A stretch of 64,000 nucleotides of DNA, taken from the IMG/VR virus record IMGVR_UViG_3300046323_000234. One strand, 5' to 3'. A program made the position numbers and the translations under genes. Shown here piece by piece: positions 10,983-64,000 of the stretch. The notes below the pieces were generated by a model that was not told where the DNA came from, made no database searches, and saw only the letters and a list, made by a program, of their open reading frames with translations. Every line of letters starts with the position of its first letter. Within the stretch, counting starts at the first letter, position 1. Origin of the DNA: a virus.

Positions 10983-12083
10983 ATGAAATTTAACGGAGTA
11001 GTTAGGAGTGCTGTTCAGCAAAAAAGCAGCGAATTTATATGTGTTGGTGATTTCACCACATATAGTTCAGATGCATCTAGCGGTGAAACCAAAAATAGAA
11101 TTGTTAGATTATATAGTGGTGGCACTATTGATTCAACTTTTAAGACTGGCACTGGATTTAATGTCGCAGTACATACAGTATTGTTGCAACCAAATAATAA
11201 AATAATTGTTTCTGGTAATTTTACACAATATAGTGGACTTACCAAAAATAGAATTGTTAGATTGGAAGCAAATGGAACTGTTGATGAAACATTAAATATT
11301 GGTACTGGTTTTAATAATTTAGTTAATAGTACGGCATTACAATCTGATGGTAAATTAGTGTGTGGTGGTGCTTTCACAACATATGATGTTTTTTCTAGAA
11401 ATAGAATTATTAGATTATCATCTGGTGGTACTGTTGATAGTACATTCCAAATAGGGAGTGGATTTAATAGTACTGTACGAGGGATTACTATTCAAAAAAA
11501 TGGTAAAATACTTGTTGGTGGTGATTTTACATCATACAGTGGTGTAACTAGAAATAAGATGGTTAGATTAAATTCAGATGGTTCAATAGATGGAAATTTT
11601 CTAATGGGTACTGGAATATCTGGTGGATTAAATTATGTTTATAATTTCTATGAACAAACAGATGGAAAAATATTGGTTGCTGGTAGTTTTACATCATATA
11701 ATGGAGTTTCTAGAAATAAACTTGTTAGATTAACATCTGGTGGTACTGTTGATAATACATTCCAAATAGGAACTGGATTTAACACTGGTGCAACACATAT
11801 TAATTGTGTACAATCAAATGGAAAGATATTAATTGGTGGTAGCTTCACATCATACAGTGGCGTAACCAAAAATAGAATTGTTAGATTAGACTTTACTGGT
11901 GCAACTGATAATTCATTTGGCGTAACAAGTGGAACAACTGGATTTAACACTGGAGCACCATTTGCTGGATTAATAACGTTAAATAATAAAATTTTAATTG
12001 CTGGTAATTTTACAACATATAATGGTGTACCAGCAGGTGGTTTAATTATATTAAACGATGATGGTTCGATTTATTTAAGTTAA
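10983..12083 (+). CDS. Delta-60 (DUF5122-like) repeat beta-propeller protein
   Basis: About 7 repeats of Q-x-DGKILVGGxFTxY...NRIVRL...GTVDxTF. Confidence 0.85.
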   Translation: MKFNGVVRSAVQQKSSEFICVGDFTTYSSDASSGETKNRIVRLYSGGTIDSTFKTGTGFNVAVHTVLLQPNNKIIVSGNFTQYSGLTKNRIVRLEANGTVDETLNIGTGFNNLVNSTALQSDGKLVCGGAFTTYDVFSRNRIIRLSSGGTVDSTFQIGSGFNSTVRGITIQKNGKILVGGDFTSYSGVTRNKMVRLNSDGSIDGNFLMGTGISGGLNYVYNFYEQTDGKILVAGSFTSYNGVSRNKLVRLTSGGTVDNTFQIGTGFNTGATHINCVQSNGKILIGGSFTSYSGVTKNRIVRLDFTGATDNSFGVTSGTTGFNTGAPFAGLITLNNKILIAGNFTTYNGVPAGGLIILNDDGSIYLS

Positions 12084-14671: not shown

Positions 14672-15445
14672 ATGAAATTAGGTATATCCTACAATCTATT
14701 TGATTGTGAAGAATTATTAGAGCCATCGATATTGGCAATTAGAAATAATGTTGATTATATCTCTGTGGTATATCAAACAGTATCCAATTTTGGAAATCCA
14801 GCATCGGAAGATTTGGAAGAGATATTGGAATCATTAAAATATGATAAAATAATTGATGACTATATTAAATACACACCAAAGTCATATGGTGGACATTTTA
14901 ATGAATTAACAAAAAGAAATCTAGGTCTTGAATTATCCAAGAAGAAAAAATGTACACATCATTTATCATTAGATTCTGATGAATTTTATTTATCAGAGCA
15001 ATTTGATAATGCAAAGAAGTATATTGAGCAAAACAATATAGATACGTCATTCTTGCAGATGAGAACCTACTATAAAGACCAGATATATCAATTAGATCCA
15101 CCAGAAGATTATTATGTATCGTTTATACATAAATTAGAAAAAGATACACAATATGTATTTAATGGTCAATCACCAGTATTGGTAGATCCAACCAGAAGAC
15201 CAAGTGGTGTATTTAACTATAAAATATTTTCAAGAGAAGATATTGAAATGCACCATATGTCAGGCATAAGGGATGACTATAGAAAAAAATTGGAAAATTC
15301 ATCAGCAAATGTTAACTTTATGCAACATATAGATTCACTTGTTGAATATTATGAAAAATGGCAATATCCAAATGCAGCCTTATGGCCAGGATTGCCACCA
15401 AAACTGCAAAATATTATTAAAGTGGATAAATTATTTGATTTTTAA
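14672..15445 (+). CDS. GT-A fold glycosyltransferase-like protein
   Basis: KRNLGL, SLDSDEFY (DxD), MHHMS. Confidence 0.65.
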   Translation: MKLGISYNLFDCEELLEPSILAIRNNVDYISVVYQTVSNFGNPASEDLEEILESLKYDKIIDDYIKYTPKSYGGHFNELTKRNLGLELSKKKKCTHHLSLDSDEFYLSEQFDNAKKYIEQNNIDTSFLQMRTYYKDQIYQLDPPEDYYVSFIHKLEKDTQYVFNGQSPVLVDPTRRPSGVFNYKIFSREDIEMHHMSGIRDDYRKKLENSSANVNFMQHIDSLVEYYEKWQYPNAALWPGLPPKLQNIIKVDKLFDF

Positions 15446-15448
15446 ATT

Positions 15449-15574
15449 ATGGAAAAATTTATAATACCTATTGGAATATTTATAATATTATTAACAAATC
15501 TAATAAGTTTATATCTATGTATTGGATTGACTATTGGTAGTTTAGGACAAAAATTGGATTGGTGGAATAAATAA
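15449..15574 (+). CDS. 41-aa hydrophobic (membrane) peptide, not in ORF track
   Basis: MEKFIIPIGIFIILLTNLISLYLCIGLTIGSLGQKLDWWNK. Confidence 0.5.
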   Translation: MEKFIIPIGIFIILLTNLISLYLCIGLTIGSLGQKLDWWNK

Positions 15575-15612
15575 CAAAACATACATACTTCTTTATAAAC
15601 AGTTTATTTGAT

Positions 15613-16089
15613 ATGGAAATAAGAGAAATGATTAATAAGATGAAGAACTTTGGTACAACAAAAGTATACACATGTGTTGATGGTATTTACGATAAAAATA
15701 AAAAAACTTTTGATTATTTTGCTGTTAATTTAGAATATGCAAAACACTTTGGCGATAATTGTTATATGGTGACTTTAAATACATCAAAGTTTAAAGTATT
15801 AGAATTTGGGATGTGGAATATAATGTATACAGAAAAAACTGGTTTAAATGGTAATAAATATAATCGAAATCAAGGTATTTTTGTAGTTGGAGAACAAAAT
15901 TTATTAACCAATTATGAAGAGCCTGTCACTAGATTCAAAGAAGCGTTAGGTGATGAAATTACTAATAAGTTTTTAGATGAACTAAATAATTGTGACGCTG
16001 TTTATGGTGAAGATGCTGGATATGTTGATGAATTTGTTTTTGCAGTAAAAAATAAAGATATGGTGATTAAAATCGAAGCACTATCGTAG
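15613..16089 (+). CDS. Hypothetical protein
   Basis: 158-aa ORF with phage-like codon usage. Confidence 0.65.
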   Translation: MEIREMINKMKNFGTTKVYTCVDGIYDKNKKTFDYFAVNLEYAKHFGDNCYMVTLNTSKFKVLEFGMWNIMYTEKTGLNGNKYNRNQGIFVVGEQNLLTNYEEPVTRFKEALGDEITNKFLDELNNCDAVYGEDAGYVDEFVFAVKNKDMVIKIEALS

Positions 16090-16153
16090 TATTGTACGAT
16101 GAACCAATCCAAAAGTTAGTAAAATTATAATTAAAAAAATTGAAATGTAGAAA

Positions 16154-16327
16154 ATGGAAATATATTTAGGTGAAAAAGTAAGACACAAAGAAATTTACAA
16201 TGGTAAAGAAATAGTTGAAGTTATTGGATTGAAAAGGGGTGAAGTGTTGCTTAAAGGTGATTTTTCTGGTGGAACTCACGCTGTTGAACAGGAAAGTTGG
16301 ATGCCGATTAAGGGATTAATTAGATAA
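16154..16327 (+). CDS. 57-aa hypothetical protein, not in ORF track
   Basis: MEIYLGEKVRHKEIYNGKE...GDFSGGTH...KGLIR. Confidence 0.6.
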   Translation: MEIYLGEKVRHKEIYNGKEIVEVIGLKRGEVLLKGDFSGGTHAVEQESWMPIKGLIR

Positions 16328-16430
16328 AATATGTGGGGAGCATGGATTGACCCTGATGATAATTTCTTTGAAAGGATTACTAAAAATGCTGGCCCACGTG
16401 ATTAAATAAATTATATAAAATTTATACAAT

Positions 16431-18121
16431 ATGGAGAAAACAACAAAAGATGAACTTATTAAAAAGTGGGAGGATAGTGGAATATTAGATGGACTTACTA
16501 AAATGGATGAAAATAGTAAAATTGTTAAATTATTTGAACCTAATTTAACACAAAAGATTTTTGAGAAAACAATACCCAATGATGATAAAAAAATCGAATT
16601 AACAACTGATGAGTTACTTAATTTACTAAAGGAGGCATATAGAAACGGCTATTCAACATATGAAATGGTGGATGCTGGATTAGAGCATTACGATGCTGAT
16701 GGTTATGCAAGGTGGGTGCTTTTTGGATTGAAACAGTAATTAAAATACAATGGCAGATCAGAAACTAATTGATAAATATCTTAAAGAATTTTATGAGGTA
16801 CAAAGATTGAAAGTACCAATAGAATTAAATAGTTATCTTCATAGAATGATAGATGAAGCTTTACATATACATGGTGTTAACATTTTGATTTGTGAAAAGT
16901 GTAATAAAAATGAACAATACGTAGAAGAAAATCCACTATGTTTAACATGTTTATTAGAAATTTATGATAAACAAAATAATAGTTAATAGATATATAAAAA
17001 TTAGTTTATACCTATGAAATACGAAGCACTTAGAAAAGAATATTATGCGGTTTATGAAAAAGAACCAGCACATCAAAACGAGAAAAATGGTGTGATATTA
17101 GCACCATATAATACAAAAGAAGAAGCTGAAAAAGCGAGAGTTAAATATGGATATGGTAATAATAACTATTATGTAGATAAACTCATAAATTAATTTTTAT
17201 TTAAAACGAAAATATTATGAATAACGAAAAAGTTGAAAATTTAGATATTAGCAGTAATAAATTACTTTTATCTGGCGTTAGTAGTACACTTACATTAAGT
17301 GGTGTGTTAAATATTAATGCAACTTCAAATGTAACAACTAAAATAAGTGGATGGTTTAGTGATAATTACAAGACTTATTATGTTGATGAAAGTGGTAAAA
17401 AGCATTACAATTAATGTTTACAAATATATAAAACTTAATTATTATGGATGAATTAAAATTTGACAAAGAAACAGCAGTAGCACTTTATCGTATATTCTGT
17501 GGATTAAGTACAAGTTGTTATCAAAATGCAGAAGTATATGATAAAGCAAAACCTAATATGAAAACTGCATACGATAAAGTGATTGAATGGGGTAGGAAAA
17601 ATTGTGATAATATTCATGGAAATTAAATTTATTGAAAGCCATAGCTTTGTGGGTGAATCTATGTATATGGTGGTAAACGAAAATTCACATAGTTTAGAAA
17701 TGGATAAAAACCAAACATATGCACAACATGCGATAAAGCTGCTAAAAGATATTTATAATATTGATAAGAAAATAGAAGATATTGAATTTGTGTGGGATGG
17801 TACTCTTTAATGGAGCAAACTTTAAATAAATACAAAATGAACTGGACAACAATTTTTAAAAGGGAAAAACCAACTGCGATAATGCCTGAACCAAAATTTG
17901 AAGATAATTGGAGGCAAGAACGTTATGAACAAAATGTAAAAGATGGTGTTTTATCTTTACAGAAAGGTAAAAGTATAAAAATAATGGATGATGGTAGAGG
18001 ATATGAATTAGCATTGGAAATAAAACACCGCTTTATGTTAGAATACCAAAAGCAATTGTCAGAAAAAATAAAAATTAATGGTAGAGATACAATTACAGTG
18101 TCGTTCCAAAATGGCATATAA
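16431..18121 (+). CDS. Run of small hypothetical ORFs (16431, 16750, 17014, 17217, 17444, about 17616, about 17810)
   Basis: Co-oriented short ORFs; 17014-17193 translated by hand. Confidence 0.6.
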
Positions 18122-18189
18122 CGGCTGCGTGTATGAAACGTAATGGATTATAACCACGAAACTTAATACGAAGTAGAAACGTAGCATTT

Positions 18190-18280
18190 GATATAACGGT
18201 TGTGGATATGAGAAAAGAAAAAATACCAAATTCAAAAATAGAAAAAGATTTTTTACTTTCTTATATCCGTTGTTATCGGT
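18190..18280 (+). repeat. attC-like imperfect inverted repeat
   Basis: ATAAC-GGTTG-TGGATATGAGAAA ... TTTCTTATATCCG-TT-GTTAT. Confidence 0.65.
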
Positions 18281-18353
18281 CTGTAAAATTTCAATAATTA
18301 TTTTTTTTGAGGGGAGGAATTAATCAATTTAATGTTTTAATAAAAACAACAAA

Positions 18354-18443
18354 ATGGAAAATATATTTGTGAATTACGAAATAGCAAAACAACTAATGAA
18401 ATACGGATTTGCTGAAAAATGTGTGGCTTTGCACATACTTTAA
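18354..18443 (+). pseudogene. Truncated ORF fused to the right half of an attC-like site
   Basis: MENIFVNYEIAKQLMKYGFAEKC runs into TGTGGCT...AGCCACA and then GTTATAGG at 18486. Confidence 0.4.
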
Positions 18444-18516
18444 AATTATAGATAAATTTATTTAGCCACATTACTTATACACTTTGTTATAGGTATGTAA
18501 AATAAAACGGATTAAT

Positions 18517-18729
18517 ATGAACAATAAAATAAATAACAAAATGAATAAGGAAACAAGAAGTTTTATTTGGGGCTTAATTTTAGTCCTAATCTGTGGAAGC
18601 GGATTTGTTGTTCACATAATCGAAATTAAAATCGGGAAGCCAAGAGATTGGTATGATTGGACATTAATGGTATTAACTCTTTACGGATTAATCTCTGGTG
18701 GATGGCGTGTCTTTCGTGCTATCGATTAG
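18517..18729 (+). CDS. Small two-TM membrane protein (cassette-like)
   Basis: Two hydrophobic segments; flanked by attC-like sites. Confidence 0.65.
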   Translation: MNNKINNKMNKETRSFIWGLILVLICGSGFVVHIIEIKIGKPRDWYDWTLMVLTLYGLISGGWRVFRAID

Positions 18730-18733
18730 GGTT

Positions 18734-18832
18734 GCCGATAACGTTTTGCGTATATACGAGGTACGCCTTAACGAAATTTTACATTATAAACAAATGCTTG
18801 TAGGCGTATCTTGTATATACGCTGTTATAAGC
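18734..18832 (+). repeat. attC-like imperfect inverted repeat
   Basis: GATAAC-GTTTT-GCGTATATACGAGGTACGCCT ... AGGCGTATCTTGTATATACGC-T-GTTATAA. Confidence 0.75.
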
Positions 18833-18848
18833 TGTAAAAATTACGATT

Positions 18849-18995
18849 ATGGCAACAGTTTACAAAGTAGAAGTAGTATCTCATTGGATTAGCTACTCAA
18901 AGGAAGAACTCGAAAAGATACTGACAGAAGCAGTAAAGGAGATTGAACGTGAAAAAGGAAATGAGATACAGATTAGAGTGGAAGAACGTAAGTAA
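18849..18995 (+). CDS. 48-aa cassette-like ORF, not in ORF track
   Basis: MATVYKVEVVSHWISYSKEELEKILTEAVKEIEREKGNEIQIRVEERK; bounded by 19/21-nt inverted repeats. Confidence 0.7.
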   Translation: MATVYKVEVVSHWISYSKEELEKILTEAVKEIEREKGNEIQIRVEERK

Positions 18996-19118
18996 TTTTT
19001 ATTGCTTATAACGATTATATATAAGCAATAAAATATAAAGTATTGAAAATTAATATTTTACAACACGAAAACTACTGACTATTACGAAATTTGTAAACAA
19101 AAATTGAAATATTAACAC

Positions 19119-19730
19119 ATGTTATCAAACCTAGCAAATATCATCTCAGATGATTCATTATTTAATTATAGTAATATCCCCTATATAAACTATTATAGTT
19201 CAACAGACACAATAATAGATACTAAATTACCAACACTAATAATTGGTTATAAACTAGCAAAACAAATATACAATTCTGGGATTGATATATTAAATAAGGT
19301 TGTTGCACCAAACCAAAAATATTGGACTTTTACAGCTGAGGAAAGAAATTTAGATTATATAAAAGATACCAAGCATTTTGTTGATAATGTAATAGGATAT
19401 TATCAATCCAATCAGAAATATATCAATTATGATCCATTATTTGCAAACAGTAAATCAATATATGATTTTATTGATTATATAAAAAATAAAGAGATAAAAT
19501 CATATAAGAATAAATATTCATTATATATAAAAACTGAAGATACAATTTTTGGATTTGATATGAGAATAATAGATAAATACTATCCAAATAACAATTTAAT
19601 AAATATTATATCAAACAAATCCAATTATTATCTTGATGATAATAATCTTATATTAAGCAGTTGTATAAAAAAATATGGAAATGAAATAAGTAATTGTAAA
19701 AAAATAATTGTTAATCTAATATCTGAATGA
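19119..19730 (+). CDS. Hypothetical protein
   Basis: LPTLIIGY and YWTF motifs; 203 aa. Confidence 0.7.
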   Translation: MLSNLANIISDDSLFNYSNIPYINYYSSTDTIIDTKLPTLIIGYKLAKQIYNSGIDILNKVVAPNQKYWTFTAEERNLDYIKDTKHFVDNVIGYYQSNQKYINYDPLFANSKSIYDFIDYIKNKEIKSYKNKYSLYIKTEDTIFGFDMRIIDKYYPNNNLINIISNKSNYYLDDNNLILSSCIKKYGNEISNCKKIIVNLISE

Positions 19731-19974
19731 AACAACATATTATAAAAGACTATAAACTAAAAGTCCAACATGATTTTCTCGTACTAGAGGCGGTATTTAT
19801 ATCATCACAAATTCAAAATATTTGGATTCAATATTAAATGAAATTGTTTTTAATAATTTCACAAAAGAAGAATATATTGAGATGTTATCAAATATGCGTG
19901 AAAATCCAAATGAACAGACTTCAAGTTATAAAACGGCTATTAATGGTTTATTCGTTAACGTTTTAAAATTATAA
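19727..19974 (+). pseudogene. Frameshifted member of the small paralog family
   Basis: One T missing at GATTTTCTC (about 19772); restoring it gives MKQHII...HDFSRTRGGIYIITNSKYLDSILNEIVFNNFTKEEY...LKL. Confidence 0.45.
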
Positions 19975-19975
19975 T

Positions 19976-20680
19976 ATGGTACTTAGAATTATTAAATGTA
20001 ATAATATATTGTTAAAATCAATATCTGGGATTATTCCTAGTGATATTTTAAGTCCAAATGGTAAATTTATTTATATTCAGTTATCAACTAATAGTTTATA
20101 TTTAGATGAGATTTTACGGATGATTTTAAATAATTTAACCAACGAAGAAAATTCGGATTTGATGGGGTGTATAAAAACATATAAGTTTATTAGCGAAAAT
20201 AATCATTATCAAAAGAGATTACTACATGGTTATTATTGTAAAATAATTGAATTGTAATATATTACCAGATGATAAAAATAGTTAATAATTGCTCAAGTTA
20301 TTTAAATCCAATCCTAAATCAGATTCAAGATTCGTTATTACCAATTGAAATATTTGATTATATTGGTTATGAAATTTATATGAAAATTGGAAAACAGTTG
20401 TTAAATGTAAATGGTGGTAAAATATATTTAGAAACAGCTAGATATTATATAATAAATGATTTGATATATGTTAAATGCGTTTTAAATGAATAGTTTAAAT
20501 GTTGATATTAAATTTAAGTGCTGTAAACATGTTCAAGATATTATTATATTGATAGATAAAAACCTTTTAATAGATGAAAGATCAGATTGGTTTGATGTTA
20601 CCAGAATCTATTATCGTGAAAAATTAGAAAATAAATTCAATGTGATTGGAGATTTAATTTATTTGGAAATAACCGATTAA
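19976..20680 (+). CDS. Three small ORFs, divergent members of the paralog family at 27.9-30.9 kb
   Basis: SLYLDEILRMILNNLTNEE; CSSYLNPILNQIQDSLLPIE; CCKHVQDIIILIDKNLLIDE. Confidence 0.6.
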
Positions 20681-20701
20681 ATAATATTTTCTAACTAATT
20701 A

Positions 20702-20710
20702 CTATTTATA
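20702..20710 (+). promoter_or_regulatory. Putative late promoter CTATTTATA (other copies at 2582, 22133, 23569, 32586, 39196, 43211, 48516, 51794, 57718, 59716, 60784, 61426)
   Basis: Exact 9-mer, essentially intergenic, mostly 12-24 nt before starts of structural-type genes. Confidence 0.75.
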
Positions 20711-20727
20711 TAAAATATATTAGTAAT

Positions 20728-20910
20728 ATGGAAAATATAAATGACAAACTAAGTGCATTTTTGGGAAAAAAAGATGTAAAGAAATCCAGAAAGAATATTA
20801 ATAACGATAATGGTACAAAGATAATTCAAGAAAAGGATGGCTTGCTTGAGCGTATTGATGTAAAATTCATTACAGAAGATGGTAAACAATTACTTACCGA
20901 AGTTTATTAA
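20728..20910 (+). CDS. Small putative late protein
   Basis: Follows the late motif; DGLLERID...TEDGKQLLTE. Confidence 0.65.
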   Translation: MENINDKLSAFLGKKDVKKSRKNINNDNGTKIIQEKDGLLERIDVKFITEDGKQLLTEVY

Positions 20911-20936
20911 TATTTAACATAAATCCAAAAAACATT

Positions 20937-21623
20937 ATGAAAAAAAGAAACGAATTATCGGATTTCAAAAAGAAATTTGGATATATATTAGAATATAAAA
21001 TCAACAACGAATCCAATCTAATGAGAGAGGATTTCGATGATGATACTATTGCTGGCCAAATGAATAGTATTGAAGAAGCTGATGAAACACCAGCAGAACC
21101 AAAACCTGATGCGTCTGGTGGTGATGTTAAACCAGCACCAACCGTTCCAGCACCAGAAAAGCCAAAACAAGAGATTAAACCAGATCCAATGGCTGAACCA
21201 CCAACATCTGTTGGAAATGAACCACCACAAGGGCCACAAGGCGAAGTTATGGGTAATGGTGAACCAGTTGAAAATCCACAAAATGATTTAATGAGAGATC
21301 AAGTATCATTTATGGAGAAGTTTGTAACAACATTGCAATCAATTGACAGTAACATGTCTCTAATGAATCAAAAAATGGATAAATATCAACAAGAACTCAA
21401 TAAGATGAGATTGGATGTTGAAGAAGTTAGAGAACCATCTGATGAAGAGAAACTTGAGATGCAAAGCTTAAAAGCTTATCCATATAATCAAAAATTAAGT
21501 GATGTGTTTGGTGATAAATTTAGAAATGATGATCAAAGCGTAAAGAAAGAATTTTCAACGGAATTTATTCCAAATGTAAATATTCAAGATAAAACAGTTT
21601 CAGATAGTTTTAACGATTTTTAA
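20937..21623 (+). CDS. Acidic, Pro-rich coiled-coil protein (possible head/scaffold-associated)
   Basis: P/E-rich linker, coiled coil, LEMQSLKAYPYNQKL. Confidence 0.6.
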   Translation: MKKRNELSDFKKKFGYILEYKINNESNLMREDFDDDTIAGQMNSIEEADETPAEPKPDASGGDVKPAPTVPAPEKPKQEIKPDPMAEPPTSVGNEPPQGPQGEVMGNGEPVENPQNDLMRDQVSFMEKFVTTLQSIDSNMSLMNQKMDKYQQELNKMRLDVEEVREPSDEEKLEMQSLKAYPYNQKLSDVFGDKFRNDDQSVKKEFSTEFIPNVNIQDKTVSDSFNDF

Positions 21624-21624
21624 T

Positions 21625-22077
21625 ATGTCTAAGAATAAACAAAAATTATTTGAAATGATGAGTAAGATTGATTCATCATTTAAAAGACCAATTAATGAAG
21701 CTGTTGATTTAAACGTTGTTAGAAAACAAATCGAACAATATTATTCCAAATTTAAAGAATTGGAGAATAAGTTAAATCAACATTCAACAGATGAATTAAT
21801 AAATAATTATATATTCAGTGAGGTTTTTGATGAAGTGACAAAATTAAAAGAGTCTTTCAATAATATAGATACTGCATTTTATAACGATTTTAATCAGATT
21901 GGTGATGATACACCAGAAGAATCAACTATATATGATGAATATTCAGAAGTTGATAATGAATTAGGTAAATTTAAAAATCTGGTTGATAATTTTTATGATG
22001 ATTTGGAAACGATGAAAAGTGCATTTGATATGCTTGGTGATTTATCTAGAGGAACAAGATATTTTAATCCGAGATAA
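21625..22077 (+). CDS. Helical hypothetical protein
   Basis: KQKLFEMMSKID...INE N-terminus; acidic helices. Confidence 0.65.
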   Translation: MSKNKQKLFEMMSKIDSSFKRPINEAVDLNVVRKQIEQYYSKFKELENKLNQHSTDELINNYIFSEVFDEVTKLKESFNNIDTAFYNDFNQIGDDTPEESTIYDEYSEVDNELGKFKNLVDNFYDDLETMKSAFDMLGDLSRGTRYFNPR

Positions 22078-22102
22078 ATAACAACATTAAATAATAATAT
22101 TT

Positions 22103-22132
22103 AAGGCTACACATTAATTTATGTAGCCTTTT
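22103..22132 (+). terminator. Rho-independent terminator
   Basis: AAGGCTACA...TGTAGCCTTTT. Confidence 0.75.
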
Positions 22133-22158
22133 CTATTTATATATAAAGAAAATATAAT

Positions 22159-23535
22159 ATGTCATTCCACAGATCCTATTTTGAGAAAAATAATACATTA
22201 ATTTACCGAAATGTAACTAATAATGGAAAAAATCCAGTAACCGAAATATTTTATGGTGGAAGAGTGGATGATATTAATTTCAGTAGGTTTATATTTAAAC
22301 CCAATCTAACAGATTTAACACATAAAGTAACTGGTGATACATTATTGCAAACAAATATAACATCACATAAGTTAAAAATATTCAATACAATATCCTATAG
22401 ACCAGATTTGATTGGTGGATTATTTTCAGACCAAATAACAAAAAGAGCATCAAGCTTTAAATTAATACTGTTCAAGATAAACCAAGAATGGGATGAAGGT
22501 AATGGATTTGAATTCTATTATGATACAACAACATTACAAGGAATAATTTATAGTGGACATTCAAACTGGTTCTATGCAAAAAACTATATTGCTTGGAGTG
22601 GTGAAGGTGTATATAATTTTACACCAGAGATTATAACCACATTGGATTATGATAATGGTGATGAAAATATCGATGTAGACATATCAAATTATGTTAATAA
22701 TGTATTATACTCTGGTGCTACAAATTATGGCATTGGAATAGCGTTTTCATCATCCACTGAGCAAATTATAACCACACAAAGATATGCCGTTGGCTTTCAT
22801 ACAAAATATACAAATACATTCTTTGAACCATATGTTGAAACAACATTCAATGATAATGTAACTGACGATAGAAACTTCTTTTATTTAGATAAAGCAAATA
22901 AACTGTATCTAATACCAAGATTCGGTAATTCATTATCAGATGTAACAGTTAATTCAGTAACTATATACGATTTTAATGATTTAGTTATTGATACATTAAC
23001 TGGTAATTCAATTAATAGATTATCAAAAGGAATCTATAATATAGATTATTCAGTATTATCAGCAGACTATCCAGATGCTGTTATATTCAGAGATGTGTGG
23101 AATGTTACATATAATAATATAACAAAAGACATAGAACAAGAGTTTTATTTGATAGATCAATTTAATTATTATAAATTTAATGATAATAAAATATCTAACG
23201 AAAGAAATTATTCAGTATCGTATTCTGGAATCGCAGATGATGAATCAATAAGGCCAAATGGTGTTAGAAAAATAAAATTATATATAAAACAATTCTATCA
23301 ACATAATAATCTACCTTTTGAAATAGATTATAGAATATATGTTAAACAAGGTGATAATATACATATTGATGTAATCCCCTTTACAAATGTTAATAGATTG
23401 GGAAACGATTATTGGTTTGACCTAGATACTAACTGGCTAATCCAAAATACATACTTTATCGAACTTAGATTAAAATTGGATGGACAATATTTTATAAAAT
23501 CACCAATCAAATTTAAAATAGTCGGCAATAAATAA
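22159..23535 (+). CDS. Putative virion structural protein (beta-rich)
   Basis: Late motif upstream; WDEGNG and FFEPYVET motifs. Confidence 0.6.
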   Translation: MSFHRSYFEKNNTLIYRNVTNNGKNPVTEIFYGGRVDDINFSRFIFKPNLTDLTHKVTGDTLLQTNITSHKLKIFNTISYRPDLIGGLFSDQITKRASSFKLILFKINQEWDEGNGFEFYYDTTTLQGIIYSGHSNWFYAKNYIAWSGEGVYNFTPEIITTLDYDNGDENIDVDISNYVNNVLYSGATNYGIGIAFSSSTEQIITTQRYAVGFHTKYTNTFFEPYVETTFNDNVTDDRNFFYLDKANKLYLIPRFGNSLSDVTVNSVTIYDFNDLVIDTLTGNSINRLSKGIYNIDYSVLSADYPDAVIFRDVWNVTYNNITKDIEQEFYLIDQFNYYKFNDNKISNERNYSVSYSGIADDESIRPNGVRKIKLYIKQFYQHNNLPFEIDYRIYVKQGDNIHIDVIPFTNVNRLGNDYWFDLDTNWLIQNTYFIELRLKLDGQYFIKSPIKFKIVGNK

Positions 23536-23596
23536 TTTATTATATTTAATAATAAAATATTTTTCTAACTATTTATATTAGAATAAACGTGAATGT

Positions 23597-23682
23597 AATA
23601 AATCTAAAAATATTATAAGAAAAATATTTTTAGATTTATTCAAAATAAAATTGACAACTGAATTAATATAGATGATATTTGT
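23597..23682 (+). promoter_or_regulatory. AT-rich inverted repeat plus putative early/middle promoter of the replication operon
   Basis: AATAAATCTAAAAATATT...AATATTTTTAGATTTATT, then TTGACA at 23651 and GATATTTG. Confidence 0.45.
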
Positions 23683-23763
23683 GTCATCAAGTAATGAAAA
23701 ACATTCGAATGTAACAAACTTGAAAATTAAAATAAACAATTATAAACAAAACGTGCTAAACAA

Positions 23764-24876
23764 ATGGAAAACGAATTTGAAGACTCATTGGATGAATTAT
23801 TAGATCATTATAATTCAACACATGAAAAAAAGGGATCAGGTGTAATCCCAAGAGAAGAACTAATGAAAAAGTTCTTTGTACCACAAAATGCCACAGAAGA
23901 ATTTAGAGTGGTTAAACAACCATCTAAAGACGGTGATAAACTTTCATACACCGAGACTGCTCACTTTCACGAAATCAAAGTAGGTGAAAAATATAGAAAA
24001 GCTTATTGCTTTAAACACAATGATGACACCAGATGTCCAATGTGTGAAATGGAAGGATTTCTTTTAGGTAAACAATTGAAAAAGAAGTTTGCTGACATGA
24101 CTCCAGAAGAAAAAGAAAAAAATGATAAGATTTATAAATTGTCATTAAAATTCAAAGCAAAAAAATTCTATATCATCAAAGGTCTTGATAGAGGTCAAGA
24201 AAAAGATGGTGTTAAATTCTGGAGATTTAAACACAATTATAAAATGCAAGGTGTTTATGATAAACTGGTAGCAGCAGTTAAATTTTCAAAACAAGAAAAT
24301 AATATCATTTATACTGATGTACTTAATGGTGTCGATCTACAAATTAATGTAGCTGATGATAAAATGCCAAACGGCAAAAAATTCAAAACAGTTACATCAA
24401 TCATGGCCAAATCCAAAACATCTCCTTTAAGTTTGGATGATGCAAAACAAAAAGCATGGTCAACAGACACACTAAAGTGGACAGATGTATTTAAACCATT
24501 GAAAGCACCACATGTGGATGAAATTAAGTTCCTAGAACTTGCAGCTAAAGGTGTAGCACCATTCTATGATGAAAAAGTTAAAAGATGGTATGCACCAGAA
24601 AATCCAGATTTGGAAGCTAAAATGAACGAAAGAACTCAAAATCTTGAAGCCAAAGAAGAAGAATCATCTTTTGGTGGTGATAATGAGTTTGAGGATGAAA
24701 TTAGTCAATTAATGAACGATAAAAAAGCTGCATCAAAAACTGCTGATATTGAATCAATGCCAACATCACAAGTCGCAACCAAAAAAGCATCAACCAAAGA
24801 AGCAGTTAAAGAAACTGTTAAAACTCTGGATGATAATGATGGTCTAGGCTTTGATGATGATGACCTACCGTTCTAA
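23764..24876 (+). CDS. T4 gp32-like single-stranded DNA-binding protein
   Basis: H...C-x8-CPMC Zn site, GVKFWRF, acidic tail ending DDDDLPF; upstream of recombinase. Confidence 0.8.
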   Translation: MENEFEDSLDELLDHYNSTHEKKGSGVIPREELMKKFFVPQNATEEFRVVKQPSKDGDKLSYTETAHFHEIKVGEKYRKAYCFKHNDDTRCPMCEMEGFLLGKQLKKKFADMTPEEKEKNDKIYKLSLKFKAKKFYIIKGLDRGQEKDGVKFWRFKHNYKMQGVYDKLVAAVKFSKQENNIIYTDVLNGVDLQINVADDKMPNGKKFKTVTSIMAKSKTSPLSLDDAKQKAWSTDTLKWTDVFKPLKAPHVDEIKFLELAAKGVAPFYDEKVKRWYAPENPDLEAKMNERTQNLEAKEEESSFGGDNEFEDEISQLMNDKKAASKTADIESMPTSQVATKKASTKEAVKETVKTLDDNDGLGFDDDDLPF

Positions 24877-26644: not shown

Positions 26645-27865
26645 ATGGAAGATAATATAATATACAAAATTTATGGATTATATGCTTTAGATGATGAATC
26701 TAAAATAATTAGATATGTTGGATATACAAAAAGAACGATTAAAAAAAGATTATCATCACATATTCACCAATCCAAAGAACGTGATACACATAAAGATCGA
26801 TGGATAAGAAAAAATAATCGTAATATTGATGTTATATTAATTGAAGATAATATAAATACGTATGAATTGGTTTTAGAACGTGAAATATATTGGATTGATT
26901 ATTATAAGAAAATTGGGAATGATTTAGTAAATAGTACTGCTGGTGGTGATGGCACTAAAGGTAGATCACCATCAATGGCTGAACGTGAGCGTTCTAGAAA
27001 GTTAAATTTAGGTAAAAAATTATCTGAAGAACATAAAGCTAAAATAGGTAAGTCACATAAAGGTAAAATACTATCATTAGAACATAAGCAAAAATTAAAA
27101 GATAAAAAACAAAATGTTAGTGATGAAACCAAACAGAAAATGTCGATTATGGCCGTTAGGAGATTTTTGAGAGAGAAAAATATATTTGTTGATGATTTAT
27201 TAAATGATGAAATAGTTCACATAAAACAATTAATAATTGAATATGATAATTTAATAAAACAATTGGTAAAAACCCCAAATGATGATATCGAGTTTTATAA
27301 AAATAAGAATTTTGAAAATAAATTAAATTATGAATTAAAAAAATCCGAAGAGTATAAATTAGGAATTTTAACAAATAATGCAATAGCAATAAAAATAAAA
27401 GAAGATAAATTAAATATAATCAGAGAGAGAGAATTAAAAAAGAATTTTTTAATTCAAGAAAAAATTAATAAACAGCAATTAATTAAAACCGAAAGAGAAT
27501 TAAAGAAACAAAAAGAATATGAATCCAGACAAAAATTAATTGATTCGGGTGATCTATATCAAATGGTTAATTCACTTGGTAAATTGATTTGGGTTAGAAA
27601 AACGTCTGAACAAACCAAACAAAAACTTAGAGAAGCTAATCTTGGTAAGAAATATAGTGAAGAAACAAAAAGAAAACATTCTGAAACCAATTTTAGGATT
27701 AGAAATGGTAAAAAGGGTGTAAAATTAACCGAAGGTGATATTAGAGAAATTAGAAGATTATGCGATAATGAGAAAACAACTAAAGAATTGACAGAAATAT
27801 ATAATATGGATTATTCAACAATCAGAAAAATAGTCCTAAGAAAATTATGGTCAGACATTAAATAA
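26645..27865 (+). CDS. Free-standing GIY-YIG homing endonuclease with NUMOD3 repeats and C-terminal HTH
   Basis: KIYGL...YVGYT, R-x3-H, REIYWI, N-STAGGDG; GKKLSEEHKAKIG repeats. Confidence 0.85.
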   Translation: MEDNIIYKIYGLYALDDESKIIRYVGYTKRTIKKRLSSHIHQSKERDTHKDRWIRKNNRNIDVILIEDNINTYELVLEREIYWIDYYKKIGNDLVNSTAGGDGTKGRSPSMAERERSRKLNLGKKLSEEHKAKIGKSHKGKILSLEHKQKLKDKKQNVSDETKQKMSIMAVRRFLREKNIFVDDLLNDEIVHIKQLIIEYDNLIKQLVKTPNDDIEFYKNKNFENKLNYELKKSEEYKLGILTNNAIAIKIKEDKLNIIRERELKKNFLIQEKINKQQLIKTERELKKQKEYESRQKLIDSGDLYQMVNSLGKLIWVRKTSEQTKQKLREANLGKKYSEETKRKHSETNFRIRNGKKGVKLTEGDIREIRRLCDNEKTTKELTEIYNMDYSTIRKIVLRKLWSDIK

Positions 27866-27866
27866 C

Positions 27867-30862
27867 ATGCAATCAAATATAATTTGGCTCAACACAATAC
27901 ATTATGAATGGTATTCACAGCTTGTTCCAACAAACATTGAATCATGTGATTATGTGAAAGATATTTTAACTGTAATTATAAATGATAACTTTGAATATAA
28001 AGAACTCCAACAATTATCTTATTTTGAAAAGATTAATTATTCTAGGGGGTGTAGATTTATAAATAAATCATTAAATTTCTATATAAATGCAATATAACAT
28101 AGCTTGTAAATATATATTGGATATACATCAATTAATAATTAATAATCTAACAGTTGAAGAAATTGATTTGTTTGAAGATGATTATCAACCCGATGGTAAA
28201 TATAAATATTATCCATTTTTTACAATTTCTAAAATATTGTATAGTGAACATACCTATTATGCTGGAATGCAGACAACATATATATTTAAATTATATGATA
28301 TAGAATGAAGAAGCCTTGTAAATATATATTAGAAATTCATCAATTAATTGTTGATAATCTAATAGATATTGAAATATTTGGATTGGATGAAACACTGGAT
28401 AAATATTATTTATCCTCAAGTGAATTACCATCAATCCATATAAGCAATATTGAATATATATGGAAATTTAATAATGGCATCTATTTAGGTGTTAAACAAA
28501 AATAAGAACATGAAGCCTTGTAAATACATAATAGACATACATTCAAATATCGTTACTAATCATTTCATTGATGAAGAATTTATTGGCATTAAAAATAAAT
28601 ATCATTGGGTAGAAGATCAAATTATTTGCGATTATATTTTTGATTGTGGAATAATATATAGATATAATTGGACAACGAATGAATTAACATTAACAACATA
28701 TGAATAAAGTTTGTAATCACATATTAATAATACACTCTACAATTGTAAAAACATTTTTGCAAGATGATTTTAAGGAATTAAAATGCAACAGTGAAACATA
28801 TTACGATATGAACATAAAATCAATTGTCGTTAATTATTGGTTTAAATCATTGGATATAAGATATAAATATTATTACAACAGCGAATTAGTTTCACTAAGA
28901 TCACCAGATATTATAAAATGATAAACAACATAGAGAAAACAATATATATGAAACATTCTCATAATTCAAATCTAAGATTGCACATGGAATCTGAATGTTG
29001 TTTTTATGTAAATGAAATTTTGCCAAATATATTAAAAAATATTACATTTATGGAATTGTCTGATTTTACATATTATAAAAATCATGCATATAAAAGATAT
29101 ATGAATAAATTAATTTATATTTATTAGTTATGAAACTTAAACCATCTTGTGATTATATATTAGAAATTCATGGTATTATTGTTAAAAATATAACAACAGA
29201 GGAATTATTTGATTTTGTTGACATAATATCACCAATCCTATATAGTCCAAATGATTTTGGATTAATTAAAAAATATTATTTTATGAAAATTGGATTAGTT
29301 TATGATAGAGAATTTGATTATGGTTAAACCATGTAATCATATATTAGAAATACATCAGTTAATTATTAATACATTATTAGATGATGAAATAAATGAATTA
29401 GCGGATGCACATTCACCAATCATAAATAATCCATATTTAAAAATGAATTATTGTTATTTCTTTTTCACAAAGTTTTATATCAAATACAGTAGAGAATTTA
29501 TATTTTAACAATGCAATATCAGGATAGACCATCGCAATATATTAAAGAAATTCATGATATGATTTATGGAAATCTAACCAAAGATGAATTATATGATTGG
29601 ATAAAATTATTAGAAACTGATCCAAGTTATTATGTACTGCCAATGTTTCAAAATGCAATTGATATTTATATTTTAAAATGTGATCATTTAGTATAACCAA
29701 TGAAACCAGCTTGTAAATATATATTAGAAATTCATCAATTGATTGTTGATAATTTATTGATTATTGATGAAGTATTACCACTATTTGATGGTAATTATAT
29801 TGGCGACTATAAATATTTAACATCAATTAGTTCAATCAAATATATAATATTAATTATTCCTTCAAGGAAATATATAATATACCAAACGAATGAATATTAA
29901 ATCAGCTTGTAATTATATATTAGAAATACATCAACAAATTATTGATAATATAACTATTGATGAGGTTAAGGAGATATGTACGATATTGAATGATGATATT
30001 CAGGTTACTAATTTTATATTAAAAGCCTATTACATCGAGATTTATCCAATCCAATATAGATTTAGTTGGAGAACGTTTAACTATAAACAACAATAAAATA
30101 ATGAGTAAATCTAGATTAATATACAAGTATTATTATTATGAGCATGAAACATGTTGTAATTATATAATTAAAATTGTTGATACTATTTTTGATAATATGA
30201 ATTATGCTGAAGTTAATGAACTTGTTCAAGAACGTAGATTATTAATGGATTGGGACATAACAAAAGAGAATGTATTTTTGATTTGTTATTTGCGTTATAT
30301 AGAAACAACATATCCGTTTTAATATGAAAGTTGCTTGTGACTACATATTGGAAATACATCAATTAATTGTCGATAATTTAACATCTGGCGAGATAGTATT
30401 ATTTATGTCAAGATTGGAAAAGATAAATGCTATTCAAAATCGGATATTATTATATCCAATCCAATATAAATATTTTTCACTAATTTCAGTGACAAATCAA
30501 AAAATTAAGATTGAATATGTTAAGACATTAATATATTAAACAAAATGCAATATAACATACCTTGTAAACATATATTAGAAATTCATCAATTAATTGTTGA
30601 TAATTTAACTGGTGATGAAATTTATAAAATAGCTGATGATGGTATTGAAATTCGTTTAGGGCAAAAACATTCATCAATATCATTAACAATAAATAATATA
30701 TATTATATTCCAGATAGTGTGTTTTGTAATTATGCAAAACAATTTAATATTAAAACCATAACAAATGAAGAAGAACAAAACAAAAACATTGCTGGTGGAT
30801 GCCACATATTTATTAAAAAGGTCATTAACTGGTTCAAAAAACACATACGTTGGTGGAGATAA
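27867..30862 (+). CDS. Tandem array of 14 small paralogous ORFs (27867, 28087, 28305, 28510, 28700, 28918, 29130, 29320, 29511, 29700, 29890, 30101, 30324, 30545)
   Basis: Shared motif C-x-[YH]-I-L-E-I-H-x-x-I-[VI]-x-N-L-x-x-x-E followed by unrelated C-termini. Confidence 0.85.
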
Positions 30863-63411: not shown

Positions 63412-64000
63412 ATGGCTAATATATATTTCAGTAAAAACGGCACATGGTATGATGCTTGCGATAGTTCAATATCCAAGAGTGGTACTTGGTATGATTTATC
63501 ATCCGTAGGTGGTTTTTCTGTATGTAAAAATGGTGTTTGGTATACTAATGAGTGTACATTCATTATACCAGCATTAGGTGGTTTTGATAATTTAATTAGA
63601 GAAATTACATATAAAAATAATAAATATTATATTGGTGGTGATTTTACAACATATAGTGGTACTACCACACCAACAGGAATAACTAAAAATAGGTTTATTG
63701 TATTAAATTCGGATGGTAGTATTGATAATACTGTTGAAATTGGGGATGGATTTAATAATACAATTAGAACAATATCATTTGATAATACAAAAATTTTAAT
63801 CGGTGGACAATTTACTACATACAGTGGTGTAACGTATAATAGAATCATTAAATTAAATTCTAATGGTTCAATTGATAATACGTTTCAGATTGGAAATGGA
63901 ATACAAGCTGGTGCAAATGCTGTTTTAAATTTTTTAAAAACTGCTGATAATGGTTATATTGTTACTGGTGACTTTGAAACATATAGCGGCATTACTAAAG
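63412..64000 (+). CDS. Second delta-60 repeat beta-propeller protein, 3'-truncated and absent from the ORF track
   Basis: MANIYFSKNGTWY...IIGGDFTTYSG...NRFIVLNSDGSIDNT; frame open to the window end. Confidence 0.8.
   Translation, partial: MANIYFSKNGTWYDACDSSISKSGTWYDLSSVGGFSVCKNGVWYTNECTFIIPALGGFDNLIREITYKNNKYYIGGDFTTYSGTTTPTGITKNRFIVLNSDGSIDNTVEIGDGFNNTIRTISFDNTKILIGGQFTTYSGVTYNRIIKLNSNGSIDNTFQIGNGIQAGANAVLNFLKTADNGYIVTGDFETYSGITK

Follow-up and report, generated by a model that had tools for sequence, protein, structure and literature searches.

Introduction

Integrons are the textbook devices for the capture and shuffling of genes, and they are considered bacterial and tied to the IntI lineage of enzymes with its extra helix. 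Complementary gene ends are familiar from hok/sok, with its fbi and tac elements, in which the 5′ and 3′ ends of a gene of about 50 codons could close the mRNA. Clusters of attC sites lacking an integrase (CALINs) have been reported in virulent phages, and phage-borne attC sites have been recombined by IntI1 (Qi et al., 2023, PMC9892861). The PeSLs of T4-type phages are intergenic stem-loop elements of about 100 bp that contain a sigma-70 promoter and are linked to homology-driven shuffling and to mini-circles (Arbiol et al., 2010, PMC2839356). The subject of the present analysis is a short inverted repeat around the gene for a 48-amino-acid (48-aa) protein in viral DNA of 64,000 nucleotides, IMG/VR record IMGVR_UViG_3300046323_000234; this whole stretch is called the window below, positions are counted from its first letter, and + denotes the strand as given. 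We consider it likely, with a probability of roughly 0.72, that the repeat represents the two ends of a single gene cassette in a phage-borne, integron-like system.

The window comes from a freshwater phage, has about 27% G+C, carries every long open reading frame (ORF) on the + strand, and contains phage-type genes such as those for a ribonucleotide reductase and a DnaB-like helicase. The following sections describe the repeat and its relatives, the recombinase found beside related rows of units, and the borders and folding of the units, and then weigh the explanations that might account for them.

The Inverted Repeat and the Gene It Encloses

The two arms of the repeat, at 18824–18844 and 18992–19012, are 21 nt long each and complementary at 19 of 21 positions; of the two mismatched positions, one forms a G·T wobble on the + strand. 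A preliminary description of this DNA had drawn attention to this pair and had stated that it encloses exactly one ORF of 48 aa; both statements hold, as the same coordinates and pairing were recovered, above chance expectation, and a single ORF (18849–18995, +) lies between the arms. The left arm consists of a GTTA core, a variable hexamer, and a constant A/T-rich part, and it ends 4 nt before the ATG. The right arm includes the stop codon (18993–18995) and ends in a TAAC core at 19009–19012, at the last base of which homology elsewhere stops. No further copy of the arm sequence with three or fewer mismatches was found in the 64-kb window.

In 40 windows simulated with a first-order Markov model of the same dinucleotide statistics, inverted pairs with at least 19 of 21 matches within 400 nt occurred at a mean of 0.125 per window. 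The real window has three of them, two of which stand side by side at 18748–19012. The neighbour of the arm pair is a hairpin immediately upstream of the left arm, with 21-nt stems at 18748–18768 and 18802–18822 that match at 19 of 21 positions around a 33-nt loop. The right arm, moreover, forms a perfect local 14-bp hairpin with 19020–19033 (−10.4 kcal/mol, z −5.5). Neither this upstream hairpin nor the local partner at 19020–19033 appeared in the preliminary description. The third strong inverted repeat, at 23594–23643, is a near-perfect A/T-rich palindrome (19/21 and better) that looks like a terminator, and it sits after the ORF at 22159–23535 and ahead of an SSB-like gene at 23764.

Covarying Ends in Relatives

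Sixty-two loci encoding relatives of the 48-aa protein were fetched (single loci are cited by L numbers), and about 30 of them carry flanking arms. The inner parts of these arms are constant, with TAAAAATTAC before the start codon and GTAATTTTTA over the stop codon. The outer hexamers vary among loci, yet are always complementary: ATAAGC/GCTTAT, AGGCA/TGCC, AGCAGA/TCTGCT, GTACGC/GCGTAC, AAACGC/GCGTTT, ACCTGC/GCAGGT, and others. Over 25 distinct pairs, the two ends of one unit agree at 4.84 of 6 variable bases, compared with 2.40 of 6 for mismatched partners, and at least five of the six variable bases match in 18 of the 25 own pairs as against 30 of 594 cross pairs. These pairs were counted with our own script; a MAFFT alignment (A2) had placed the longer left arms out of register.

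The pairing is also found around other genes. Unrelated ORFs of about 50 to 211 aa in the same contigs carry the same bracket, which runs T-GTTA, hexamer, A/T-rich stretch, and ATG at the left, and stop codon, A/T-rich stretch, hexamer, and TAAC-G at the right, and their flank-pairing scores greatly exceed those of mispaired controls (99th percentile, 17.2 vs 10.6). In 51 of 57 bracketed units, as in the left arm of the window, the base before GTT is T; the base after AAC is G in 38/57 and T in 13/57 (together 51/57). Arms identical to those of the window, over all 21 nt, flank two further unrelated ORFs, and they follow the hairpin type of the window in one locus (L065) and another hairpin type in the other (L071). 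Some freshwater contigs share the hairpin and continue with other units after GTTA, and some share the left arm and continue with other genes.

Successive units are separated by a long hairpin, the stems of which covary and which is flanked by a 5-nt spacer on one side and by 1 nt on the other. In the window, this site reads ..ATAAC-GTTTT-(21-bp stem, 33-nt loop)-T-GTTAT.. at 18738–18828, and the same layout with covarying stems recurs in L010, L015–L020, L028, L038, and L046. At each junction within a row, the basal halves derive from different units and match solely at the core, and the long complementarity spans the gene and not the junction. This is what would be expected if the junctions were recombination hybrids of once continuous hairpins.

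Several relatives show arrangements that deserve mention in their own right. In L040 (1327–1780), two 48-codon cassettes adjoin, with separate arm pairs of the GTACGC and the ACCTGC type; the second ORF does not belong to the 48-aa family, yet shares the constant inner arm sequence. In L032 (1501–1824) and L033 (233–556), a copy of the 48-aa gene without a stop codon reads on to 107 codons, with a left arm of the GTACGC type and a right end from a different unit (..TTGCTAAC), so that it looks like a fusion of two cassettes. Finally, the hairpin loop before the 48-aa cassette is inverted in L020 (1225–1345) relative to L019 (290–410), with the stems unchanged; this could be the expected product of an exchange between the hairpin's own arms, and it could also be an assembly artefact.

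A Linked Recombinase and the Orientation of the Rows

The richest row of units, on the L010 contig, is followed directly downstream by a gene for a 267-aa tyrosine recombinase that is co-directional with the row. Phage_integrase and SAM_4 domains are recognized in this protein, and its top scores are on Xer and integron-integrase models, below their cut-offs (154 bits on TIGR02249, cut-off 265; 105 bits on NF011946, cut-off 435). The best structural matches are of the XerA/XerC/XerD type (PDB 4a8e, 1a0p, and 5hxy), and the catalytic R..K..HxxR..H..Y motifs can be read in the sequence. An alignment to VchIntIA (2a3v) falls into two blocks and skips about 48 chain residues corresponding to the extra domain (query 171–213 vs chain 173–263). 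Judged by these comparisons, the array-linked enzyme is Xer-like and is not an IntI.

IMG/VR contains 226 relatives of this recombinase, many of them on contigs of 100–360 kb. Bracketed ORFs were counted in 80 loci centred on such relatives, in which 404 kb upstream and 543 kb downstream of the recombinase were available. Of the 88 bracketed ORFs in this census, 83 precede the recombinase gene and share its strand, whereas 3 follow it and 2 are encoded on the opposite strand. The last bracketed unit ends less than 100 nt from the recombinase gene in 16 cases, and most of the 80 loci have a conserved ..TAAC^TATTATATATA.. about 60 nt before the recombinase ATG (here and below, ^ marks a border between two bases).

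Unit Borders and Mobility

Insertions of the size of a single unit can be read directly from relatives. The cultured Polaribacter phages Freya_10 and Freya_9 differ by exactly one 307-nt unit of the form GTT...gene...AAC. In Freya_10, this extra unit sits at AAC^, 52 nt upstream of the ATG of the integrase gene, with an ambiguity of 3 nt. Ten Polaribacter phage Freya isolates vary in the amount of DNA upstream of the integrase, and Freya_1 and Freya_10 have different last units and share everything from AAC onwards. Furthermore, a 5.7-kb block by which L136 and L089 differ is bounded by CTAAC^G. In the Freya phages, a gene annotated as an HNH endonuclease directly follows the integrase (L144, 4969–5200, in Freya_10; L145, 872–1100, in Freya_1).

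For the unit type of the window, at least nine unrelated right-hand neighbour sequences start directly after TAAC, and the hairpin upstream comes in just two types. The block of homology between the window and L010 spans 18732–19025, and a direct repeat, TTGCCGATAACG and TTGCTTATAACG, stands at 18732 and 19002. The AAC core that closes the preceding unit is at 18740–18742 (+), and this direct repeat and the unit census point to AAC^G as the probable crossover. Taken together, the Freya insertion, the linkage between hairpin and arms, and the L010 block place the unit borders at 18742^18743 and 19012^19013. The mobile unit is thus probably 18743–19012 (+), that is, a spacer hairpin of 81 nt, the left arm, the 48-aa gene, and the right arm, with AAC^G on both sides.

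In the preliminary description, the repeat itself was taken to define the mobile unit, which now appears too short, since the hairpin at 18743–18823 seems to travel with the left arm. Its expectation that homology would end exactly at the repeats in different neighbourhoods is borne out on the right, where the border after TAAC recurs in the at least nine neighbourhoods; on the left, the homology with L010 extends past the arm and through the hairpin. Homologues of the gene in arrays keep the repeats, whereas copies outside arrays are without them.

Strand Bias and Folding

The pairing between arms is not symmetrical between the two DNA strands. In 68 of 76 units, the arms form a more stable duplex on the sense strand than on the antisense strand (Wilcoxon p = 4e-11), and G·T pairs account for 155 of 1680 arm pairs on the sense strand as against 35 of 1517 on the antisense strand. 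The spacer hairpin behaves likewise, with a predicted single-stranded DNA fold of −20.9 kcal/mol on the + strand vs −16.7 on the − strand (z −4.9). Its asymmetry arises from G·T wobbles and from the internal loop of 5 nt vs 1 nt; as read from the sequence and the folding, its stem (18748–18768 with 18802–18822) has two mismatches and no obvious flipped-out base. Such strand-specific wobbles exclude a repeat that is bound by protein as double-stranded DNA. The strand bias fits a folded single strand, as in attC sites.

When the two unit ends are joined in a modelled circle (19012^18743), one continuous hairpin of 123 nt is predicted for the sense strand, at −33.3 kcal/mol with DNA parameters, compared with −26.0 for the antisense strand, −22.2 for the form present in the row, and a mean of −7.9 for shuffled sequences. 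The earlier proposal that, in a circle, these ends would extend the recombination hairpin well past the 7-bp core of classical attC is supported by this modelled 123-nt fold; the circle itself was not observed.

Proposed Mechanism

Rows have the order ...TAAC^, G-spacer, hairpin, T, GTTA, variable hexamer, A/T-rich stretch, ATG, gene, stop codon, A/T-rich stretch, variable hexamer, TAAC^... In the mechanism that we propose, the Xer-like tyrosine recombinase encoded beside such rows in relatives would cut a folded single strand at its AAC core. It is the sense strand of the gene that would fold, and in its geometry this strand would match the bottom strand of a classical attC. Units would leave the row as circles excised by the enzyme, which would also insert circles at a fixed position next to the recombinase gene. 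In the circle of the window's unit, 18992–19012 and 18824–18844 would form the basal 21-bp stem of a long hairpin with the hairpin of 18743–18823 on top, and this basal stem would be the counterpart of the 7-bp R box of attC, at three times its length. Folded sites within a row would be hybrids of neighbouring cassettes, which would account for the long complementarity across the gene and not across the spacer. As no recombinase gene lies beside the row of the window, activity there would need an enzyme in trans. What the sequences show directly is the anatomy, the covariation, the strand bias, the linkage of rows to the recombinase, and insertions of unit size at AAC^ in relatives; the circle, the point of cutting, the chemistry on a single strand, and mobility of this unit at present are inferred.

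A wider formulation is more tentative, and we place it slightly below even odds. Large phages, probably of Bacteroidota, might possess their own integron-type capture system, with a short Xer-like recombinase that is without the domain regarded as indispensable for the recombination of folded single strands, hairpin sites whose long basal stems are made from cassette ends, and an enzyme that serves distant satellite mini-arrays such as the row of the window.

Alternative Explanations

Several observations weigh against an integron-like cassette. There is no homologue of the recombinase within the 64-kb window and no tyrosine recombinase in three complete or near-complete related phage genomes that have the 48-aa gene; of these three, the gene is clearly bracketed in G002 and not in G004 or G005. 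The array-linked recombinase also lacks the IntI insertion, which is considered a requirement for the recombination of folded single strands. For the window's unit, no clean empty site or circle junction was present in contigs of four freshwater runs; three short-sided joints across 18845–18989 in these contigs are not counted as evidence. Relatives of the downstream 203-aa gene were sought for an empty site, and the search returned none. Hairpin and arms also reassort at T^GTTA, which a single crossover at AAC does not predict, and the Freya cassette has the inner A/T-rich complementarity alone, so that long matching ends are not universal. Moreover, a bias of G·T pairs towards the sense strand and arms placed at the stop codon and just before the start codon are equally expected of an mRNA structure.

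One alternative dispenses with a dedicated enzyme and is, in our judgement, unlikely. Regulatory spacer hairpins of terminator or promoter type, recurring among small genes, would be shuffled by homologous recombination, as in PeSLs, with template switching between neighbouring inverted repeats keeping the arms matched. The families of spacer hairpins do share long similar stretches fit for homologous exchange, new combinations of hairpin and arms arise at both cores, a recombinase is missing from several phages that have bracketed genes, and the inverted loop of L020 would suit such exchange; shuffling and mini-circles mediated by PeSLs are, moreover, documented (PMC2839356). The breakpoints, however, lie at cores of 3–4 nt, outside the long similar stretches, and the rows stop at a conserved site beside the recombinase with an orientation bias of 83:3:2. 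Strand-biased wobbles are likewise unexpected for double-stranded exchange. In addition, the region 15000–23000 has no enrichment of sigma-70-type promoters (71 found vs 66 expected) and none of these is in register with the hairpin, although this consensus may not be that of the host.

Action of the arms in RNA is quite unlikely as the primary explanation. The 5′ leader and the 3′ end of a small mRNA would pair, for start masking by a hok-like fold-back, as a 21-bp RNase III target releasing and stabilizing single-gene mRNAs, or for coupling of termination and reinitiation, and DNA shuffling would be secondary. The arms do stand at translational borders, the left one 4–5 nt before the ATG and the right one around the stop codon; the wobble bias is on the transcribed sense strand, and 18725–19120 folds well as RNA (z −6.5). 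The minimum-energy RNA fold, however, pairs each arm locally and not with the other arm. ORFs of up to 211 aa are bracketed, for which an A/U-rich stem would have to close a loop of 640 nt, an implausible structure; genes unrelated to one another are flanked by identical arms, and bracketed genes cluster upstream of the recombinase and are otherwise absent from the 64-kb window. Homologues of the 48-aa protein outside arrays (72–87% identity) have no arms, for example where the gene is tightly packed between other genes in L001–L005 or lies between tRNA genes in L006 and L007, which indicates that the arms are not needed for the expression of this gene. The tRNA genes beside it (L006, 400–480; L007, 2900–3260) were recognized by GGTTCGAATCC T-arm sequences on both sides.

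An integron-like cassette remains the preferred explanation, and the data exclude two further readings. On the first of these, the arms would be the inverted ends of a miniature transposon, recognized in double-stranded form by a transposase encoded elsewhere. A 19/21 repeat around a short unit has the classical look of such elements, and the reading is nevertheless very improbable: there is no target-site duplication (flanks ..CGCT^ and ^GATT..), the mismatches are strand-biased, no Y1 transposase was found in five related records, and the arm sequences differ wholly between copies yet stay complementary, which a shared transposase site would forbid. Chance complementarity in A+T-rich DNA, which does contain many weaker inverted repeats at 27% G+C, has a negligible probability given the excess of strong pairs (0.125 expected vs 3 observed, two of them adjacent) and the compensatory changes across dozens of loci.

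The Cargo Gene and the Surrounding Row

Judging from its many conserved relatives, the 48-aa gene at 18849–18995 is genuine, and it is highly conserved and very widespread. At E <= 0.01, 138 relatives of the protein were found, and the best 120 of the 138 are 66–98% identical, with a length of 48 residues in nearly all of them; some are on contigs of up to 425 kb. No match was found in Pfam, PHROG, and a protein atlas for the 48-aa, 70-aa, 109-aa, and 203-aa proteins of the window, and searches against 50,697 phage records returned no match for the 48-aa protein or, at the DNA level, for 16001–24000. An AlphaFold model of the 48-aa protein, of moderate confidence (pLDDT 77), has one helix (residues 18–33) flanked by extended segments and is too simple to justify a fold search.

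The spacer hairpin of the unit (18743–18823, +) begins with a 5-nt spacer, GTTTT, and ends, after its stems and a loop with CAAATGCTTGT, in a single T. It is almost identical in L010 and L065 and covaries in L015–L020, L016, and L028, and a peak of read depth over it in four freshwater runs indicates that many other contigs carry that hairpin. Contigs of other runs part from the window right after GTTA (18827) or after ..TTAC (18843/18845) of the left arm. The hairpin loop has a MotA-box-like TGCTT ahead of TATATA, but a promoter reading was dropped, as the spacing is lost in the other hairpin type and the loop is inverted in L020. Hairpins of L010 repeatedly contain the loop motif TCGTTTTAATG, which does not occur in the window. 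No tRNA was found by a tRNA scan, and no Rfam family reached its gathering score, the weak look-alikes of miRNA precursors over the hairpin reflecting a generic hairpin shape.

From the order of its sites, the 48-aa cassette is the last unit, still intact, of a short and partly decayed row at 18123–19033 (+). The upstream units (18123–18742), as read from the sequence and from matches to relatives, comprise an ORF-less unit ending in ..ATATAAC (18123–18197) and a unit at 18198–18742 with ends GTTATCGG (18272–18279) and CCGATAAC (18735–18742). The latter holds remnants of another site (18466–18502) and a 70-aa ORF (18517–18729). Matches to relatives are scattered along this stretch: 18123–18160 resembles the element that follows the cassette in L017, 18150–18197 resembles the final element before the recombinase in L072 and L134, and 18464–18491 matches 3254–3281 of L010. 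Sites were seen by eye and folding at 18195–18275 and 18740–18827, with a terminal core at 19010, and a scan of the 64 kb found no further convincing AAC..hairpin..TGTTA element. The row is closed by a look-alike of the array-terminal site, TAAC^GATTATATATAAGCAA (19013–19033, +), of which 19020–19033 is the partner of the right arm; 19009–19023 is the sole match of the window, at up to one mismatch, to the array-terminal motif.

The final element before the recombinase-proximal site is often a motif without an ORF, about 40 nt long (..AACTTAATACGAAG...AAACGTAGCATTG..ATAAC), which is also present in the row of the window at 18150–18197; it stands about 50 nt before the terminal TAAC in L072, L073, L078, L093, L101, L103, L111, L113, and L134. 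Elsewhere in the window, the ORF at 26645–27865 (406 aa) resembles homing endonucleases of phages, with matches to phrog_314 and, in the C-terminal part, to an HNH family, and represents a second kind of mobile gene. The region 28000–30700 contains tandem mini-genes of about 200 nt with a conserved 5′ core, of which a repeat search found nine copies. Finally, the genes at 10983–12083 and 63412–63999 share 153-nt DNA repeats encoding DUF5122 beta-propeller blades, and these copies are 52 kb apart.

Comparison with Known Systems

The hok/sok system resembles this locus in gene size and complementary ends, but the 48-aa protein is hydrophilic and not a membrane toxin, and the pairing flanks many unrelated genes and tracks a recombinase-linked array. 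XerC/D and archaeal XerA provide the best matches of the recombinase and share its catalytic motifs; Xer enzymes, however, act on double-stranded dif-like sites, whereas here the sites are strand-biased hairpins in rows of cassettes. PeSLs are similar in being stem-loop elements beside small orphan genes, located where the genomes of large lytic phages are plastic. They differ in being direct repeats with a strong sigma-70 promoter, whereas the ends here are inverted and cassette-specific, the breakpoints lie at cores of 3–4 nt, and a recombinase gene stands at the ends of rows.

CALINs comprise at least two neighbouring attC sites, as recognized by the attC covariance model, and no integrase nearby. 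Those of virulent phages resemble the window in that a short row of cassette-type sites stands in the genome of a phage and lacks an adjacent recombinase. The sites of Qi et al. (PMC9892861) were found with attC models and tested with IntI1. That report describes no Xer-type enzyme, array-terminal site, or long complementarity between a unit's own ends, and a search of the literature likewise returned no description of an Xer-type enzyme, a terminal site, or long pairing of own ends.

With integrons, the system shares several features. Mostly single-gene units stand in co-oriented rows, and the junction is an imperfect hairpin of about 60–130 nt with an invariant AAC/GTT base, an unpaired spacer, and a second stem, in which the sequence is free, the structure is kept, and one strand alone folds well. 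Insertions cut at the AAC/GTT core occur beside a tyrosine recombinase gene with a conserved adjacent site; this attI-like fixed site is found in relatives, as in the Freya_10 insertion, and the window has a look-alike at 19009–19023 with no recombinase. The same cassette occurs in different neighbourhoods with borders at the core, and in a circle the cassette's own two ends would form the base of the hairpin.

Other features set the system apart. The 267-aa enzyme is Xer-like, without the roughly 48 residues of the extra domain of VchIntIA (2a3v), and the additional domain of IntI (the I2 helix, between the lysine hairpin and HxxR) is absent from it. Genes here are co-directional with the recombinase and read towards it, whereas integron cassettes read away from attI under the promoter Pc and intI is divergent; since the sense strand, which folds here, corresponds to the bottom strand of a classical attC, the gene polarity is opposite to that of integron cassettes, and most of the site lies 5′ of its own gene. 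The basal stem formed by a unit's own ends is 13–22 bp long, compared with 7 in attC. The internal loop is one-sided (5 vs 1 nt), and strand choice, which in integrons is set by extrahelical bases in the L box, seems to be made through G·T wobbles, with no obvious flipped-out bases seen. The host of the system, moreover, is a lytic-looking large phage. The suggestion in the preliminary description that these ends represent a distinct class of site is therefore fair, as the associated enzyme is not IntI.

If the wider formulation given above is true, the recombination of single-strand hairpins arose, or survives, outside the IntI lineage, and circles are the form in which lytic phages exchange small accessory genes. 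Confirmation of the chemistry would mean that the IntI insertion is not the sole route to recombining folded single strands, and it would explain how small orphan genes turn over in the plastic regions of phages. The pattern T-GTTA...TAAC-G with unit-specific matching ends would then also become a simple signature for delimiting mobile phage genes in metagenomes. Overall, the system is integron-like in its working and stands outside the integron family because the additional domain of the enzyme and the gene polarity of integrons are both absent. Read together with its relatives, the cassette shows integron logic in large lytic-type phages with three differences, namely, another and shorter recombinase, genes of inverted polarity, and pairing of the cassette ends over about 21 bp.

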